A stretch of DNA of 64,000 nucleotides from Escherichia coli 042 (GTDB taxonomy: Bacteria > Pseudomonadota > Gammaproteobacteria > Enterobacterales > Enterobacteriaceae): assembly GCF_000027125.1 (NCBI RefSeq), contig NC_017626.1. One strand, 5' to 3'. The notes under the pieces were generated by a model, which was not told where the DNA came from, made no database searches, and saw only the letters and a program-made list of their open reading frames with translations. The translations under genes and the position numbers were made by a program. This document shows, piece by piece, positions 26,981 to 48,891 of the stretch; the first letter of the stretch is position 1; every line of letters begins with the position of its first letter.

Positions 26981-27706
26981 TCACAGAATTAACAGGTCCT
27001 CATCAGGATCAAGCGTGGACAGAAAGTCATTCACGCCCCCGCCATTTACCAGAAAGCGGCTCATGGCTGTAAAAAGCGCAACAGGGCCGTCGATTTTGGC
27101 TTCCGGCGTGGATTTATTCGGGAAGATGTTGTCGTTTTTGTCCGGTTTTACAGTAACGTTAGACATCATCCAGTTCATGACCGGATGATTGCTGTGATGG
27201 AAACGCCCGGCATAAACCAGTGATTCCGTTTCCTTCATGGCCTCTGACAGATTGCGGACCGTCTGCGGAACCTCCACCAGCGGTATCCCTTCTTCAGCCA
27301 GTGCCAGACTGAACTGCATTGCGCTCCACGGGTCAAATCCCAGTTCCCTGAGGTTTTCACCGCCAATCCATTCCAGTAAGTCACTTTTTATCTGAGCATG
27401 ATCGATAACATCACCATCCGTCAGGATGAGCTTATCCATCTCCGCCCACTTCCGGTAAAGTTCTGCCTGCTGCCGCGAGCATCGTTCCAGCCGTCCTTCC
27501 GGAAGCCAGAATTTAAAATCAGCATGAACATGTCCGTTATCGGTTCGCCAGAGTTTTGCCGCCGCACAGATATCAATCTTATGAGCAAGGTCGACGCCGA
27601 CCCACATGGGATATGTTTTCAGCTCATGTTGTGGAGCAATGTATTCGCACTTCTCCCACTTAATCATATCCATCCAGGCAGATTCGGCAGTGACCCACAC
27701 ATTCAT
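26981..27706 (-). pseudogene. terminase large subunit, C-terminal fragment (gene interrupted by satellite insertion)
   Basis: 241-aa ORF is TerL nuclease-domain region; its first codons continue the reading frame of the N-terminal fragment at 42956-43983 across the insertion. Confidence 0.8.
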
Positions 27707-27710
27707 GTGT

Positions 27711-27717: not shown

Positions 27718-27792
27718 GAATATTTCAAGTTTTTTAAAATTGACTGTATATCAATCGTTTAACATGAAAAAACAGTCTTTATAAATCATCGA

Positions 27793-27813
27793 GCAATACA
27801 CAGCGCAATACAC
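27793..27813. repeat. tandem GCAATACAC repeats (putative integrase arm-type sites), left end
   Basis: Two copies here and two at 42804-42824. Confidence 0.5.
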
Positions 27814-27997
27814 GTATCTGTATTGTTTTAATGCTGATACACACCGTTTTTTGATACAGTGATTCGACCTACCATCGCGAAGCATTTTTTATTTCTTGTG
27901 TGTAACAATCTGACGAGGTGAGCACTCAAAGAGATAAGAGGCAGTAGAAATTTCGATCCCCCCTGAATGCAATTTTTCGTATATATATACAAAACAG

Positions 27998-28153
27998 TGC
28001 GGGTTATGCGGGTTAGCGGGTTATCTTCGCGTGCTAATTATCTTTTACTCTTTAATATCAATATGTTAAAAAACAACGCATTTAAATATCAGCCAGAATG
28101 TAACCCGCAAGACATTCAAAATAACCCGCAAACACCCCTCAAATAACCCGCAA
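27998..28153. repeat. iteron-like cluster: 3 direct and 3 inverted copies of TGCGGGTTAT
   Basis: Repeats read directly; same motif recurs at 36165-36291 next to the primase gene. Confidence 0.7.
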
Positions 28154-28232
28154 AAACATCCCTGAAAGTAGGTGCCGGTAATACTGAAAATTTATTCCAT
28201 TAAATGAGCATTGTCCTCTCTCATCCATTCCG

Positions 28233-29894
28233 TTACACACCATCAAACGCCGCAAGCCGCTCTTTGTGGCTGTCGCTCATATCGAATGCAAATTCCTCAT
28301 GCTCTGCCTGGAATGTGCCAAACGCCATCAGCGCCGCAACGCTCGGGTCTATCTTGTTGGATGATTTTTTCTTGTTCGGCTTGATATTGGCGTTCGCGTC
28401 ACTCTGCATCACAACATTACTCATTGACCAGGCCAGCACCGGATCACCACGATGCACAATCACCTTCCGGTTAACAAAAACTTCGAACGATTTCGCCGCC
28501 GGACTGAAACGAAGGTATGTTTGCGGGAACGGCTCCACCTCAAATCCTGCGCCCTGTAGCTGCGTCCTCAGGTGCGTGGCGTTCCATGTATCGAAGCCCA
28601 CCAGCCTGATATTGAAATTTTCTGCATCTGCCATGATGTCATCACGGATACGGTCATAATCAATGCAGTCACCCGGTGTTGTGCGTATCCAGCCCGCCTT
28701 TACCCACTGGCGATAGATGGCGCGGTTTTTATTGGCGGGGTTCTGTAGCTGAAATTCCGGCAGATAGTGACGGGAAACCAGCATAATCTTTTTACCGACC
28801 GGAAAGGCATAGCACACGCTGGAAATATCGCTGGTTGATGATAAGTCCAGCCCCGCGTAGCACTCCTGCCCGTATAAATCCGCCTCCGCGAACGTTCCGG
28901 CGCACTCCGCCCATGCACCGTTACCCATCCACGGCGTAGCCCCCTGACACCAGATATTGAATCGCTTGGTGAGCATTTCCACCCACTGCGACGGAATACC
29001 CCGCGCTTTCTGGATGGTTGAGGCCAGTTTTTCACGATCGACGGAAACATCGATATTGGGATTCGCCTTTATCCACATCGCCGGATCGTCAACCTCGCTT
29101 TCATCATCCAGCTCGTAAATCAGCACGAACATGGATTCGTTCACCTCTTCACCATCCAGTATCTGGCAGCAATAGTCGTAGTGTTGTTTACAGGCTGAAA
29201 CAACGTTGCTCCCCGATGTGGTGATGGCAAATAATAACCCCTCCGGACGCGCCCCCATTCCCAGTTCAAGCGCGGAATAAACCCCGTTGTCAGGGTGCAG
29301 GTGATATTCATCCACAATGGCAAGACTCGGGTTTGTACCTTCAATGGTTGCCGCTTTTGCTGCCAGTGGTTTTAACAGGCTGTTGGTTTTCGGGTGTATC
29401 ACCTTGTGTGCCTGAATATTTACCCGCTTTCGTAACGGTCGGGATAAAAGGCACATCTGACGCGCATCATCAAACACGATCCGCGCCTGATCACGACTCA
29501 CGGCGGCGGTGTAAATATCCTGCTGCCCGTTTTCCATAACCAGAAACCAGTTAGCCAGGATAGCGGCGACCGTGGATTTGGCATTTTTTCGCGGTACTTC
29601 AATGAATGCGCTGGTGTATTTGCGCCGCCCGGTGGCCTTAACCTTAAAGCCCAGGATGCACGCAAAGGCGAACTGCTGCCACGGCTCCAGCTCAATGGGG
29701 CTACCGCGCATTGCGCCTTTTACGTGCGGGCACACCCTGGAAAAGGCAATAAACCGCTCCACGACCTCCGGATCGAACGTGTAAAGGGGGTTTTCAAGGT
29801 CAGAAAAATACCGTTTAACGGCCTGTTTCAGTCGTTTACAGGCCGTAATTTTGCCGTTTTTTACGCCTTCTGCGTACTCATGCCAGGCGGTCAA
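28233..29894 (-). CDS. terminase large subunit (satellite-encoded)
   Basis: 553-aa complete ORF; same family as but divergent from the split prophage TerL. Confidence 0.85.
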   Translation of the reverse strand: MTAWHEYAEGVKNGKITACKRLKQAVKRYFSDLENPLYTFDPEVVERFIAFSRVCPHVKGAMRGSPIELEPWQQFAFACILGFKVKATGRRKYTSAFIEVPRKNAKSTVAAILANWFLVMENGQQDIYTAAVSRDQARIVFDDARQMCLLSRPLRKRVNIQAHKVIHPKTNSLLKPLAAKAATIEGTNPSLAIVDEYHLHPDNGVYSALELGMGARPEGLLFAITTSGSNVVSACKQHYDYCCQILDGEEVNESMFVLIYELDDESEVDDPAMWIKANPNIDVSVDREKLASTIQKARGIPSQWVEMLTKRFNIWCQGATPWMGNGAWAECAGTFAEADLYGQECYAGLDLSSTSDISSVCYAFPVGKKIMLVSRHYLPEFQLQNPANKNRAIYRQWVKAGWIRTTPGDCIDYDRIRDDIMADAENFNIRLVGFDTWNATHLRTQLQGAGFEVEPFPQTYLRFSPAAKSFEVFVNRKVIVHRGDPVLAWSMSNVVMQSDANANIKPNKKKSSNKIDPSVAALMAFGTFQAEHEEFAFDMSDSHKERLAAFDGV

Positions 29895-30234
29895 GCTCGT
29901 CCTCTTCCTCTGTTTCCGGTGGATTTCTGCGGCGGCTTACCGGGTCAAAACCCAGCAAAGAAGCCATTTTGATCATTATTCTTTCTGCGTCAGCCTTTGC
30001 GCTCAGGGCGGGGTTTCTGCTCTCACTGCCCTGACTGTTAACAATGCTGAATCCGCGCGTCGCAAGGTCTTCGACGGCTTTGCGGTATATGGAGTAGTTA
30101 ACGCAATACAGCTCCAGATTGCTCCAGTCGGCGGGGGTAAGGTCTTCCCGCCCGGAAAGCTGGCGCGATTTTTCCTTCCACTGCCTGACCGCGATTTCAT
30201 CCAGGTAAGCGGGGGCTTTTGGTGGTCTTGCCAT
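29878..30234 (-). CDS. terminase small subunit, P27 family (satellite)
   Basis: Start set at MARPPKAPAYL...; directly upstream of terL; the longer six-frame ORF start is an upstream extension. Confidence 0.75.
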   Translation of the reverse strand: MARPPKAPAYLDEIAVRQWKEKSRQLSGREDLTPADWSNLELYCVNYSIYRKAVEDLATRGFSIVNSQGSESRNPALSAKADAERIMIKMASLLGFDPVSRRRNPPETEEEDELDRLA

Positions 30235-30522
30235 GTTCTTTTTTCGCCCAATTATTTTCAAAAAAATTCCCGTGCACAAAAATTTGAGGAGGCGGTCGGT
30301 GTCCGGCAGGGACGGTTTCGTCCTGAAAACCTCCCCCACCCCCTCTGACAGCCTCACCAGCGATTGCGAAAACATTCCATGACCTCGCGGTCACGGTCGG
30401 TTAATCGCTTCGGTGTGGTGCGTTCTGTGCGCCCTGTCCTGTTGACTTTGTGCCCTGTCTCCTGTGTCTTCCATAAGTCACGCTGCCTTATCAGTCCACG
30501 TATCAGCCTGTTTTGCTCCTGT

Positions 30523-30963
30523 TCAGTCATCATCGCCATACATCCAGTCGTTACGATGTGCCGCCCGTTCTTCCTGCTCGCGATACATGCCCGCCTTACG
30601 GTTCGCTTTCGTGGCTGGATCTTCCCGTGTCGTCTTACGGTTGTGGCACGTCTGGCACAATGCCTGGTGGTTCCACTCAGGCCAGAAGAGAACATCACCG
30701 CCGCCATTGATGGGAATGATGTGATCCACCACAAGAGCTGGCGTATAAATCCCCTTAGCCAGACAACGCACGCATAACGGGTTTTTGCTCAGGTACAGGG
30801 CGCGGTATTTGTCCCACTGCCGGGAATACCCACGCGCGCGGCGGTGCCCCCGTCTGGCATCCTCTGCACGCCATGCAGCCCGCCTGTGCTCTTCACACTT
30901 GCCGGACTTCACGCGCTTATTACAGCCCGGCTCAGTGCATCGCCTTAATGGTTGCCACGGCAT
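30523..30963 (-). CDS. HNH endonuclease (packaging-associated)
   Basis: 146-aa ORF with Cys/His HNH motifs, upstream of terS. Confidence 0.8.
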   Translation of the reverse strand: MPWQPLRRCTEPGCNKRVKSGKCEEHRRAAWRAEDARRGHRRARGYSRQWDKYRALYLSKNPLCVRCLAKGIYTPALVVDHIIPINGGGDVLFWPEWNHQALCQTCHNRKTTREDPATKANRKAGMYREQEERAAHRNDWMYGDDD

Positions 30964-31262
30964 CAGTACACCCCCACATCACGATAAACCGACCAGAGCG
31001 CAGAAATAGCCATAGGCAGTTCAGACTGTTCCACAGGTGAAACCGCTTCCCTGTTCTCGTACAGGAAAGCGATGTACATCAGGCAACCAACACGTATTGC
31101 CGGGGTAAATTCCAGCCCGTCTTCAAAACGTTTCCCGATATGCTTCTGGCAGGCTTCCAGCGCCGCATCGGTATACATTTTCAGAAGTTCGCCTTCTCCG
31201 GAAAAGTCATCAAGGCGAAGATGTGCCCTGACTTCATCAGGTGTAATTTTGTCTTCACTCAT
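30963..31262 (-). CDS. head-tail connector (gp6-like) protein (satellite)
   Basis: Start set at MSEDKITPDEVR... to limit overlap with the portal gene. Confidence 0.55.
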   Translation of the reverse strand: MSEDKITPDEVRAHLRLDDFSGEGELLKMYTDAALEACQKHIGKRFEDGLEFTPAIRVGCLMYIAFLYENREAVSPVEQSELPMAISALWSVYRDVGVY

Positions 31263-32469
31263 CTTTTTCACCTTTAATTTCCACAGTCTGCTTCCATGCC
31301 TGGCTGAACTCGTCGCCACCTTCACGCGGCGGCATTCCCTCACGCTCACGGGCTTCGTTCGGATTCATGATCCCGTTCTTAATCCCTTTCTCATACGTGG
31401 CGTAACGTTCGGTAGGGGTGGCGCGCAGTAAATCGGCTGAATCAAACTCAACCAGATAACGGGTACCAGGTACGGGAGAAGCCACCAGCAAAGCGGCCTT
31501 GATTTGCTGTTCGAAGTTCGCCAGCCACGGACGCATTGTCATAGTCAGAAACGCGCGGCTTGCCTCACTGAAATTGCTGTAGGTGCTGTTGCTGTATTCC
31601 TGAAGAAAAATCGGCGACACGTTGAACATACGGGCAATGTCTTCAATGGAGAAGCGACGGGAGGCCAGCCATTCAGCATCCTGGTTACTCATTCCCAGTT
31701 GCTTGTAATCCATGCCCCCTTCAAGGATTGGCGTTTTTCCGGCATTTTTCGCCCCCTTGTAGCGTTCCAGTGCGTCTAATGCCTGTTTACCTTTCACGCC
31801 GTCCAGCCATTCGCCTGACGTGATAATCCCTGCCGCCATCATGCCATCTTTCATAATGCTGGCTCCGTGGCGCTGTTGAGCAAGGCCAAGCCCCAGCGCC
31901 TCACGGCAAATCGTGACAGGGGAGCGCCCCAGAAAGCCATCATCCGAGGCATAGCGGAGATGCAGAACTTCTTCCTGTAAATACGTGCGCACCGTTCCTG
32001 TACAGGGTTCGGTGATGGTATAGCGGTATTTGTGTGCGCCTGTGCGTTCCGGTACAACACACCCCGGCGCATAAGGATGAAGTGATTTTGGCTGCCCGTC
32101 CTGCCCCCACTCAATAACCGCATAGGCGTTACCGTTCAGCAGACAGTGACGCATCATTGTGCGTTTAAACTGGTAAGGTGTCTGGCACGAATTAGGCTGC
32201 TCATTCAGCAGAATATCTACCGGATGACTGTCCAGCCATTCCCGCGCCTCCCTGCCCTTGTCATTACGTACCAGATACAGATAACACGGCATCGTGGCCA
32301 CCGCCTCAGCGATGACAGAAACCGCGTTCATCACAGCAGGCAATGATTCAGCCGTCCCGGCAGAAACATATTCTCCGGATCCGGTATTCGGTACGCCGGA
32401 CAGCGCCAGAAAATCATCAATGGACAGGTTACGTTGCTCGCTTTTTTTACGACTAAAAGGCCACCACAT
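31255..32469 (-). CDS. portal protein, HK97 family (satellite)
   Basis: Start set at internal Met (MWWPFSRKK...) just after the protease stop. Confidence 0.8.
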   Translation of the reverse strand: MWWPFSRKKSEQRNLSIDDFLALSGVPNTGSGEYVSAGTAESLPAVMNAVSVIAEAVATMPCYLYLVRNDKGREAREWLDSHPVDILLNEQPNSCQTPYQFKRTMMRHCLLNGNAYAVIEWGQDGQPKSLHPYAPGCVVPERTGAHKYRYTITEPCTGTVRTYLQEEVLHLRYASDDGFLGRSPVTICREALGLGLAQQRHGASIMKDGMMAAGIITSGEWLDGVKGKQALDALERYKGAKNAGKTPILEGGMDYKQLGMSNQDAEWLASRRFSIEDIARMFNVSPIFLQEYSNSTYSNFSEASRAFLTMTMRPWLANFEQQIKAALLVASPVPGTRYLVEFDSADLLRATPTERYATYEKGIKNGIMNPNEAREREGMPPREGGDEFSQAWKQTVEIKGEKDE

Positions 32470-32470
32470 A

Positions 32471-33031
32471 TCACAACCCCGCCAGTTCAGCCCAGCGATG
32501 ACGATTATTTCCTGCCGGGCGTAATTCAGGGTGCTGTGCAAACAACGAACGGTGGGCAATCTCCACGCCAGATTCTGGATAAGCAGGCATCGACGTTATT
32601 GTGATTTCTCGGAGTTCAGCGGCGGTTACGGTACGCAAATACGGTTTTTGCGCGATATTCCATTCTTCGCATAATGCGCGAAAGCCAAAGCTCATTCCTG
32701 TAATGTCGCCACGCGACACCAGCGTGAGCACATCTTTTCCAAGCTGGGTATCAGGCGGTGTCAGTTCAAAACGTAGCCCGGTGTTGTCCCCAGTCAGTAC
32801 CAGAGTGCCGGATTTGGTGCGCCCCAGCAGTTGGGTATAGTCATGCTCATACAGGCAGCGCACATCATTACCCGCCGCCAGATAGTCAGCAAAAGCCCCC
32901 GGCGTGAACTGTTCGCGGAATTCGTCCCAGATAATTTCTGAAAGGCTGTTCCAGCGAACGGCATACCCCACCAGCTTTTTATTGCTGGCGGTCAGTTCAG
33001 ATGTGCGGATTTCAAAATCGGTGTTTTTCAT
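32471..33031 (-). CDS. prohead protease, HK97 S78 family (satellite)
   Basis: 186-aa ORF with conserved protease motifs. Confidence 0.8.
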   Translation of the reverse strand: MKNTDFEIRTSELTASNKKLVGYAVRWNSLSEIIWDEFREQFTPGAFADYLAAGNDVRCLYEHDYTQLLGRTKSGTLVLTGDNTGLRFELTPPDTQLGKDVLTLVSRGDITGMSFGFRALCEEWNIAQKPYLRTVTAAELREITITSMPAYPESGVEIAHRSLFAQHPELRPAGNNRHRWAELAGL

Positions 33032-33085
33032 CGGTGTACTCCATAAAGCTGAAAAAGGAGGCCGCAGCCTCCTCCTTACTCATGA

Positions 33086-41582: not shown

Positions 41583-42783
41583 TACTGTCACCACTAATTT
41601 GCTTATTCAGATAGTCGTACCACCAGTTCATAGCTTCTTTTTTTCTGTCCATATACTGGCTTCTGTTATAAACCCCGGCAACACCGCCTAATGTGTGCCC
41701 AAGCAACTGTTCAACCACATTATGTTCAAAACCATGATCACTTAGTTTTGTGGCAAACACTCTTCGCATATCATGCGCCGTCCATTTCTCCGAGTGTTTC
41801 ATCCTTTTCCATGTCTTACCGATAGTTACGCTTGCCGTACACTGACGCATATCAAACCCAATCACATTTTCTTTGTTACCTGTTATTTTTTTTAACGTAA
41901 CTAACCAGTTAAACATGCCATCAGGAATCGGTCTGATTATTTCCCTGCCATTTTTGCTATGATCAGCGGGAACGCGCCATAATTTCTTATCAAAATCCCA
42001 CTCTACCCAGGACGACAGTAATACTTCTGACAGTCGACAACCAAAAACTACCAGGAAACGTAAAATAATTCGGTTTTCATATGATAATTCGTGATTGTCA
42101 TAATCAGTATTAATACTTCGCCATAAATCTCTGATTTCATCATCTGTTAAAACCCTGCTTCTTCGCGCAGACTTTTTTCCCACATCACAGACCTCAAGAT
42201 CATCAATTTCATGACTAATCGCGTATTTTCTTACCCTACAAAATTTAAGCGCCTGTTTTGATATACGCAACAAAGCTCCGGCCTGTACAGGTGCTACTTT
42301 TTTTATTTTGTCAAAACACTTAATCCACATAGATATAGAGCAATCACTAAGTGGTACATGACCAATCACCGGATAAATATGTTTACCAAAGCACTGCCTG
42401 ATATGTTCTGCTCCCCTACGCTTATCCATTGCATAATTATCAAGCCAGTATTCAAGTGCCTCACGAACGGTAACAGGTTGCAAGGTGGCTTCCCGTTCAA
42501 TTTTTATCTGAATCCGTGGATCTCTGCCCTCCGCAAGCCAAGTTCGACACTGATCGCGCATCTCTCTCGCTGATTTGAGACTCAGATCAGGATATTTTCC
42601 AAGTGTCAGCCAGATGGGCGCGGTTTCCCTTCCCGCCAGTCTGTAAAAGAAAACAAAACTAACACATCCGTATTTACTGACCCGTACCGAAAGCCCGTTA
42701 CCATCAGCGATGGTTTCCTGCCTCTCACTCCTGCGTCCAAGCAGGGAACGAAGTTTTTTATCGCTCAGTTTGTTTAGCGCCAT
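41560..42783 (-). CDS. tyrosine integrase (P4-like)
   Basis: 407-aa segment beginning MALNKLSDKKLRSL...; catalytic region HDMRR...LLGH...VY; upstream part of the 807-aa ORF is read-through from terL. Confidence 0.85.
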   Translation of the reverse strand: MALNKLSDKKLRSLLGRRSERQETIADGNGLSVRVSKYGCVSFVFFYRLAGRETAPIWLTLGKYPDLSLKSAREMRDQCRTWLAEGRDPRIQIKIEREATLQPVTVREALEYWLDNYAMDKRRGAEHIRQCFGKHIYPVIGHVPLSDCSISMWIKCFDKIKKVAPVQAGALLRISKQALKFCRVRKYAISHEIDDLEVCDVGKKSARRSRVLTDDEIRDLWRSINTDYDNHELSYENRIILRFLVVFGCRLSEVLLSSWVEWDFDKKLWRVPADHSKNGREIIRPIPDGMFNWLVTLKKITGNKENVIGFDMRQCTASVTIGKTWKRMKHSEKWTAHDMRRVFATKLSDHGFEHNVVEQLLGHTLGGVAGVYNRSQYMDRKKEAMNWWYDYLNKQISGDSNDSNSYA

Positions 42784-42803
42784 GTGATTTATAACCCGTT
42801 TTT

Positions 42804-42824
42804 GCAATACACAGTGCAATACAC
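42804..42824. repeat. tandem GCAATACAC repeats (putative integrase arm-type sites), right end
   Basis: Same 9-mer pair as at 27793-27813, same orientation. Confidence 0.5.
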
Positions 42825-42955
42825 AAATGATGAAAACAGCCAGAACCTTCCAGAAAAAACAAAAACGACGAACAAGAAAAAAATCTTTTTCTTTCATTTG
42901 GTTACTAAAAAAATCAGGACAGGTCGCACTGTTGTTACGGCGTGATGTTACTTTC

Positions 42956-42962
42956 TTGGTAA
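42956..42962. repeat. right copy of 7-bp direct repeat TTGGTAA (att core)
   Basis: See left copy. Confidence 0.7.
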
Positions 42963-43983
42963 AAAAATTCACCCGCGCAGAGACCTGCTCCTTCGCTTTT
43001 TTCGCCAGACGACGCAGATCATCCCAGCGTTTACAGATGCCCAGGCCAGGATTCGCTTTCTGCCAGACCGTTTCATCAAACGGATCATCTCCCTCATCGA
43101 GCGTGTAAATGATCGCAAAGTAAGAGTCGTCTTTTACAGCGCCCTCCACGTCGCTGTTATAGCCTCGCAATACCTTGATGGCGTAATCACGCTGCTCGTA
43201 ACAAATCCCTTCCTTGTTAAAGCCAGCCGTGGTGATACCAAATAACAAGGACTGCAGACGGGCACCGGTTGCCGTTTCCAGAACGTCCCACACGTCGCGG
43301 GTTTTATGTGCATGCAGCTCATCAATAATGGCGCAGTGGATGTTCAGACCGTCCAGGTTGTTTGCATCCGAGGAAAGCGGTTCAAATTTTGATGCGCTCT
43401 GCTCCTGGTAAATCGCCAGCTTGTTGAAATCAAACAACCGCCCGAGTGTCGACCGGGCTTTTCTGACCATATTTTTGGCGTCTTCAAACACGATTCTGGC
43501 CTGGTCACGCGTGGTTGCGGCTGAATACACCTCAGCTCCGCCTTCACTATCTGCCCCCGTCATATACAGGCCGATACCCGATGACAGGGTTGATTTTGCG
43601 TTTTTACGGGCGACTTCGTTGTACGCCGTCCGGAACCGGCGCACCATCACCGGACGTCCGCTGCCATCGCTGCGCATGACAACTTCCCCGGTTTCTTCAT
43701 TGACCAGCGGAATGACAAAACCAAAAATATTAATGAGGATAAATACATGCCAGTCCATCAACTCAATGGGCTGGCCTGCCAGTGCCCCTTTTACATGAGG
43801 CACAAATTTGTAGAAATTCAGGATGTGCTGCGCACGGGGTTCACTGAAATAAATCCCCCGCTTTTCGCCGTACTTCAGATCATCAAGAAAACGCTGGCAG
43901 GCCAGGCGGACAAATTCGCCAGCAACAATTTCTCCTGCAACAACACGTTCGGCGTAGCGGATCCCGTCAGCCACTTTTGCCAT
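42956..43983 (-). pseudogene. terminase large subunit, N-terminal fragment (interrupted by satellite insertion)
   Basis: First 340-345 residues of the 807-aa ORF are TerL ATPase-domain sequence; the frame then runs through satellite DNA into the integrase. Confidence 0.8.
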
Positions 43984-48636: not shown

Positions 48637-48713
48637 TATGGCGCGCTGTACTGGATTCGAACCAGTGACCGATTGCTTAGAAGGCAATTGCTCTGTCCGG
48701 CTGAGCTAACAAC
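48637..48713 (-). tRNA. tRNA-Arg (anticodon UCU)
   Basis: Manually folded cloverleaf: acceptor GCGTTGT/ACAGCGC, anticodon stem ATTGC/GCAAT, loop CTTCTAA, T-loop GGTTCGAATCC, encoded CCA. Confidence 0.8.
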
Positions 48714-48815
48714 GCTGAATACCGATAATGGACCGCCATCGGGGACCCGCCCCCGCACCAACAACCCTGTTATCGTGTCGTCTGCTCTTCCTGATAAGCT
48801 AATGGCGGTTTGTGA

Positions 48816-48891
48816 TGGTGGCCCTTGCTGGATTTGAACCAGCGACCTGGCGATTATGAGTCGCTCGCTCTCACCACTGAGCTAAAGGGCC
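48816..48891 (-). tRNA. tRNA with CAU anticodon (Ile2/Met type)
   Basis: Acceptor GGCCCTT/AAGGGCC, anticodon loop CTCATAA, T-loop GGTTCAAATCC, encoded CCA. Confidence 0.8.

Follow-up and report, generated by a model that had tools for sequence, protein, structure and literature searches.

The 64-kb stretch of Escherichia coli DNA analyzed here (the window) contains a helper prophage whose large-terminase gene (terL) is split by a 15.25-kb island (Table 1). The genes of the island encode a tyrosine integrase (Int), two AlpA-family proteins, Bro-N and Icd-like proteins, a DUF927 primase, SSB and PerC, together with a major capsid protein, a protease, a portal, a connector, HNH, TerS and a TerL of its own. 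The combination of int, alpA, a primase/replication module, its own capsid genes and an hnh–terS–terL unit, with no tail or lysis genes, is that of the capsid-forming PICIs (cf-PICIs), and the order of the genes is that of EcCIEDL933 and of the published description of the cf-PICI family, which gives these islands a size of 10 to 15 kb. The island is a cf-PICI satellite seated inside the terL gene of its helper prophage. It is co-oriented with the gene that it interrupts, with int, alpA and terL all on the minus strand. Genes for tRNA-Arg(TCT) and tRNA-Met(CAT) are found about 5 kb beyond the helper terS/terL (48639–48891, minus strand), presumably within the helper prophage.

Table 1. Coordinates of the satellite, its attachment site and the doubled motifs in the 64-kb window
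Feature	Position	Strand	Basis or remark
Helper terL, C-terminal (endonuclease) part	26981..27710	-	
Left att core TTGGTAA	27711..27717	.	TTACCAA on the gene strand, within the F-T-K codons of terL
PICI body	27718..42955	-	Annotation of the near-identical E. coli UMNF18 locus and ORF list
Predicted IHF site TATCAATCGTTTA, matching the consensus WATCAANNNNTTR	27749..27761	+	Between core and distal pair; read from sequence
Distal doubled motif GCAATACAC-agc-GCAATACAC	27793..27813	+	attP arm far from int
Second AlpA-family ORF	41019..41327	-	Pfam PF05930, 7.2e-10
AlpA-family gene, candidate excisionase/regulator	41361..41594	-	Pfam PF05930, 1.9e-9; overlaps the end of int
Tyrosine integrase, 407 aa, P4/CP4-57-like	41560..42783	-	Pfam and PDB sequence matches
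Int-proximal doubled motif GCAATACAC-agt-GCAATACAC	42804..42824	+	20 nt upstream of the int ATG
Right att core TTGGTAA	42956..42962	.	Junction comparison and att identity 'ttaccaa' in PMC10111431
Helper terL, N-terminal (ATPase) part	42963..43983	-	

When the two halves of the helper terL are joined through one copy of the core, the resulting 320 bp are 100% identical to uninterrupted terL in about 600 E. coli genomes; the insertion is thus precise, within the F-T-K codons, and excision gives back an intact terL. About 35 of 5426 complete E. coli genomes carry the island, and in each of them it occupies this terL site. At both ends these 35 carriers are at least 97% identical, too close to inform on conservation, for which more distant relatives are used below. 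An 807-aa ORF (41560–43983, minus strand) runs in frame and without a stop from the N-terminal TerL fragment through the att arm into int. We rejected translational coupling of TerL and Int as an explanation of this ORF, which appears incidental: in close relatives belonging to that site group the frame is closed by a stop 117 nt upstream of int, and in other site groups by one 0 to 153 nt upstream.

An exact search of the window finds GCAATACAC four times, starting at 27793, 27805, 42804 and 42816, all on the plus strand, with no further exact copy elsewhere in the 64 kb. In 100 dinucleotide-preserving shuffles the motif occurred 0.53 times on average and three times at most, and no shuffle held four or more copies. 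One-mismatch copies number 18 across the window against 15.8 expected and were set aside as background; because they are not enriched, only the four exact copies stand out. These four form two tandem pairs, each with a start-to-start spacing of 12 bp, and the reverse complement of either pair holds two exact TGTATTGC cores, again 12 bp apart start to start. The first-pass annotation had noticed co-oriented tandem pairs at both ends of the island, one some 80 bp inside the left junction and the other just upstream of the integrase gene, and the exact search places them there: the left pair begins 76 nt past the end of the left core, and the right pair stops 20 nt short of the int ATG (42783, minus strand). 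Its caveat that the motif might be common genome-wide finds no support in a window holding four copies where 0.53 are expected. The same expectation, together with flanks of the two pairs that are unrelated to each other, speaks against the pairs being a product of chance or a duplicated remnant of the element ends.

Read along the plus strand, the excised circle runs from int (on the minus strand) through 20 nt to the proximal pair, then 131 nt to the core and 75 nt to the distal pair. Measured from the center of TTGGTAA to the near edges, the proximal pair lies at 135 bp and the distal pair at 79 bp, on opposite sides of the core, and both are co-oriented in this reconstructed attP. The earlier suggestion that the pairs lend support to the proposed boundaries of the element is strengthened by these fixed distances from a 7-bp core whose use in an in silico excision restores an intact terL. 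A predicted IHF site falls in the stretch that separates the core from the distal pair, and other site groups have A/T-rich ATCAA-like elements at a comparable offset.

Two further features of the left end are recorded here. Beyond the distal pair, at 27818–27859, there are more degenerate copies (inverted CAATACAG, 27818–27825; CTGATACAC, 27834–27842; TTGATACAG, 27851–27859), which are not kept in other site groups; the GATACAC form among them resembles the arm motif GTGATACAC of a PICI inserted at hpt. Deeper in the island, past the distal arm site but short of the position (28233) at which the satellite's own terL stops, three copies of TGCGGGTTA, 8 to 9 bp apart, face three inverted copies of TAACCCGCAA, 21 to 22 bp apart (27998–28023 and 28101–28153). 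EcCIEDL933 has a different repeat array at the equivalent place, made of ATCAAC..GTTACCGC-like units (6120–6580 of its extracted locus), and the array in the window may be the cos or terminase recognition region of the satellite.

The doubled motif is already known, and the present finding is a re-discovery. Tommasini, Mageeney & Williams (2023, NAR Genom Bioinform) described helper-embedded PICIs (HE-PICIs) in 14 sites of prophage late genes, with a doubled motif, tgTGTATTGCantgTGTATTGCa, of which each attP has two co-oriented copies, one 81 ± 2 bp upstream of its center and the other 132 ± 2 bp downstream (PMC10111431). Supplementary File 1 of that paper includes the Eco*.15.A_Terminase_1_246 elements, E. 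coli islands of about 15 kb with the att identity 'ttaccaa' (PMC10111431). The island in the window has the motif of this group (its pairs are tgTGTATTGCantgTGTATTGCa read on the opposite strand) and its att identity, and like the members of the group it is an island of about 15 kb embedded in co-orientation in the terL gene of an E. coli prophage. The near edges of its pairs, at 79 and 135 bp (the latter becoming 133 bp once the published flanks of 1 to 2 nt are counted), agree with the published distances to within a few base pairs, depending on how these are measured. The window holds a member of the published A_Terminase_1_246 group, from which nothing substantive sets it apart. The discoverers left the binder of the motif open, naming the arm domain of Int, AlpA or an unknown protein (PMC10111431). 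What our analysis adds to that paper is modest, namely that the layout recurs in P4 and in non-embedded PICIs and that the motif tracks the N-terminal domain (N-domain) of Int and not AlpA.

Among more distant relatives, an 11-kb satellite of E. coli sits in a lambda-like major capsid gene with the core GCTTGGGTT and encodes an integrase 50% identical to that of the window overall and 72.5% identical in the N-domain, this being an integrase of the capsid-E-gene site group. Its GCAATAC-type pairs lie 84 bp past the left core and 149 bp ahead of the right one, counted from where each core copy begins, compared with 82 and 152 bp in the window on the same measure. The distal arm site of this satellite, in strain LR-29-1 (NZ_AP027515.1), is adjoined by a DUF262 and HEPN gene pair (9103–10819 of the extracted locus), which is likely antiphage defense cargo carried at the satellite end.

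A scan of IMG/VR for GCAATACANNNNGCAATACA returned more than 120 stretches, and 40 of the doubled motifs lie 13 to 78 bp upstream of integrases that are 44 to 100% identical to that of the window. On more than 20 contigs two co-oriented pairs stand 9.7 to 16 kb apart; in most of these, the longest word common to both ends (the core) precedes the distal pair by 79 to 88 bp and follows the start of the proximal pair by 147 to 153 bp. At least six different cores, located in terL, ClpP-protease and capsid genes, share this geometry, among them TGGATCATCAT (ClpP-type prohead protease), TGCTTCGGCT-like (capsid), (TCG)TGATATT, ATCGCCTT(TA), ATAATCCTTAAT and TTGGTAA. Motif and spacing persist in satellites with integrases no more than 45 to 52% identical. 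In a second set, of 79 IMG/VR loci picked solely by integrase N-domain similarity through an alignment search that returned only HE-PICI-clade loci, 78 have the doubled motif no more than 120 bp upstream of int, and all 79 do if the single mismatch of the exception is allowed. The first-pass annotation had reckoned with related elements lacking the motif near their ends, which is not what these loci show. The distal pair falls within the 10-kb flanks in 4 of 59 N-domain-selected loci, most such pairs being hidden by that limit, and the paired-end geometry rests on the set of more than 20 contigs. HE-PICI integrases are 61 to 76% identical to that of the window in the N-domain and 44 to 52% identical over the whole protein.

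Other features of the arms vary among these elements. A third, degenerate half-site, TGCAAC(G/A)C or GTAAC, follows the proximal pair in most HE-PICI site groups, about 27 to 30 bp toward the core from where that pair begins; the terL group of the window is without this half-site. Most site groups also have an IHF-like element, ATAATTAnCAAnnnnTTAA / TATCAAnnnnTTR, in the middle of the long arm. In E. coli TUM1881 (NZ_CP128979.1), an IS2 element (IS3 family) flanked by a CAGCG target duplication has entered the spacer between the distal half-sites, at the equivalent of window positions 27802–27804, so that the half-sites are now 1.3 kb apart (160–180 and 1495–1520 of the extracted locus). This natural disruption of an arm site may lock the satellite inside terL.

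The HE-PICI paper describes the motif as unique to HE-PICIs, whereas we find the layout, though not the sequence, in P4 and in PICIs inserted at phoQ, clpS and hpt as well. The comparison with the att regions of P4-like integrases that the first-pass annotation had proposed brings out the same arrangement: in P4 (GenBank X51522), which has an integrase of the same family, features annotated as 'attP arm sequence repeat' have the motif (A/G)TGCCCCC in place of GCAATACAC and form two co-oriented, 12-bp-spaced pairs, the first of which (3942–3965) begins 16 bp ahead of the int start codon, with the other (4151–4174) on the far side of the core (4078–4097). These P4 arm repeats go back to Pierson & Kahn 1987 (cited in PMC7286903). 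P4 differs from the window in its shorter distances, about 122 and 63 bp from the center of the annotated 20-bp core, in its target, which is a tRNA-Leu gene and not a prophage late gene, and in extra single repeats annotated within int. In the phoQ-site PICIs EcCIEDL933 and EcCICFT073, T(A/G)ACTACAC pairs follow the left core by 86 bp and precede the right core by 147 bp, start to start. The same TRACTACAC pairs recur in a clpS/cspD PICI at 79 and 132 bp from the core center, and a cf-PICI at hpt has GTGATACAC pairs in the same layout. TACAC is common to TRACTACAC, GTGATACAC and GCAATACAC.

These motif classes bear directly on the idea that the pairs are sites of a host architectural protein, IHF or Fis. 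Such an origin would be in keeping with att arms in general, which normally hold host-factor sites, and with the A/T-rich surroundings of the pairs. The GCAATACAC, TRACTACAC, GTGATACAC and TGCCCCC classes, however, coexist in E. coli at the same positions of their elements, so that a host protein is not the reader, and clade-specific motifs of this kind effectively refute IHF or Fis in that role. A host-factor origin of the pairs, taken together with the chance or remnant origin considered above, strikes us as extremely improbable.

The remaining candidates are products of the satellite itself. Its integrase has an N-terminal arm-DNA-binding domain at residues 6–92 (Pfam PF13356, Arm-DNA-bind_3; E = 5.7e-18, above the gathering score) and a catalytic domain at residues 211–377 (PF00589, Phage_integrase; 1.4e-18), and its sequence matches in the PDB are the N-domains of CP4-like integrases 3JU0 and 3JTZ. 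An AlpA homologue is encoded downstream of the integrase in every related locus with a readable region; this tells against Int as the reader insofar as AlpA can never be struck out by its absence, and it leaves room for the doubled motifs to be sites of an AlpA-family recombination directionality factor (RDF) or transcription factor that bends both arms for excision, with the arm-binding domains of Int bound elsewhere or nowhere. The original paper names this alternative (PMC10111431), and TorI (PMC2951348) and Vis (PMC7286903), RDFs of P4-family elements, repress int and have direct repeats of the att arms as their binding sites.

To place the two proteins side by side, we compared five elements that represent three motif classes. 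Int N-domains of elements with the same motif are 72.5% (window and capsid-site element) and 80% (phoQ and clpS) identical, compared with 45 to 61% for elements with different motifs. The remainder of Int is 43% identical between the window and the capsid-site element, which is within the between-class range of 40 to 47%, and AlpA, at 51%, is likewise within its between-class range of 40 to 52%. The site sequence thus does not follow the RDF protein, as the sites of an RDF should, a result that five elements make indicative only. The co-variation of the motif with the arm domain that is expected of arm-type sites is present among these five elements as a graded relation, in that the Int N-domain of the hpt element is 61.5% identical to that of the window and overlaps the lowest HE-PICI values (61 to 63%). 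The predicted β2 and β3 strands, VSFVFFYR and IWLTLG, are nearly invariant among users of GCAATACAC, and the phoQ integrase has LTWYFTYR and ERIKLG at the same predicted strands. The comparison, small in sample and graded in outcome, favors a motif class that follows the N-domain of Int rather than AlpA. Three other observations tell against AlpA as the reader: no further exact copy of the motif stands at island promoters, where a transcription factor would be expected to have one; the four half-sites, arranged 2+2 across the core, match four protomers of Int; and in P4 the annotation gives the tandem repeats as attP arm repeats. On balance we regard AlpA as an unlikely reader of the pairs.

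The position of the proximal pair, which ends 20 nt before the int ATG, also invites a purely transcriptional explanation, in which the pairs would be operators for int autoregulation or for blocking read-through of helper late transcription and have no role in synapsis. Precedents are at hand in the Int of P4 (PMC7286903) and the IntS of KplE1 (PMC2951348), which repress their own promoters through sites in the att region. As operators, though, the pairs would be hard to account for at the distal end, which no gene start adjoins, and in their fixed distance from the core across at least six unrelated target sequences; nor is there a promoter-like site near either pair on the relevant strand. 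We regard an exclusively regulatory role as very unlikely. On the int strand, promoter and terminator scans of both arms found nothing: the interval from the core to int has neither a sigma-70-like promoter nor a terminator, in keeping with the published suggestion that late transcription of the helper runs on into the satellite.

Binding by Int itself is the reading that we prefer: the four GCAATACAC copies are likely to be arm-type binding sites of the heterobivalent tyrosine integrase of the satellite, as the first-pass annotation had proposed. The repeats lie in both arms of attP, off the core and unlike it in sequence, at a core spacing that is conserved in relatives, and the Arm-DNA-bind_3 domain of Int, the annotated repeats of P4 and the way the motif follows the Int N-domain all point in this direction. 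The arm-type sites of lambda Int (P1, P2, P'1–P'3) are the classic parallel, lambda Int being, like that of the window, a heterobivalent integrase with an N-terminal arm-binding domain; they differ from the core sites, flank the core on either side and include tandem copies about one helical turn apart (PMC2951348). The two systems differ in the fold family of the arm domain (PF13356 in the window Int) and in the arrangement of the arms, which is 2+3 in lambda and, as read from the sequence, a symmetric, co-oriented 2+2 in the window.

On this model, excision of the satellite would join its ends into an attP with one pair about 135 bp away from the core toward int and the other about 79 bp away in the opposite direction. 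Four Int protomers would then bind, each with its C-terminal domains on a core half-site and its N-terminal Arm-DNA-bind_3 domain on a single arm half-site, and the arms would be bent back, probably by IHF, and by AlpA in addition for excision. The lambda-like intasome formed in this way would carry out integration into, and excision from, the terL gene of the helper prophage. Because the proximal pair ends so close to the int start codon, its occupancy probably also represses int. KplE1 (CPS-53) offers an experimental parallel: in its IntS/TorI attL, studied by Panis et al. 2010, arm and RDF sites of a heterobivalent integrase overlap the int promoter (PMC2951348), and the overlap of the IntS arm sites with PintS gives autoregulation, binding and regulation both having been shown experimentally (PMC2951348). 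P4 Int, too, is reported to repress its own promoter (PMC7286903). The arm consensus of KplE1 contains TAAA, unlike the motif of the window, where the proximal pair stands just ahead of the int ATG. Since the scans map no promoter here, the idea that int is autoregulated is one of analogy with these two systems.

More broadly, we lean toward the view that the 2+2 layout represents a common attP ground plan of the P4/PICI integrase clade, combined with a clade-specific arm code that would be read by Arm-DNA-bind_3, and that HE-PICIs have been retargeted with this code frozen. The plan would comprise a 12-bp spacing, a pair just upstream of int some 125 to 140 bp from the core and another pair some 65 to 80 bp beyond it. 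The code would be TGCCCCC in P4, TRACTACAC at phoQ and clpS, GTGATACAC at hpt and GCAATACAC in HE-PICIs, whose integrases would have reached their many late genes by changing only the core-binding and catalytic domains. If true, this would settle the Int-versus-AlpA question of the 2023 paper (PMC10111431).

With the underlying biology already in the literature, little is gained on that side. For the locus itself, the motif pins the boundaries of the satellite to the base pair and marks the window as a helper prophage with an embedded satellite, whose excision must come before terL is expressed. For the family, the evidence on the arm domain and the recurrence of the layout in P4 and ordinary PICIs provide a simple rule for finding satellite ends, and the same results offer a handle for engineering or disabling satellite excision.
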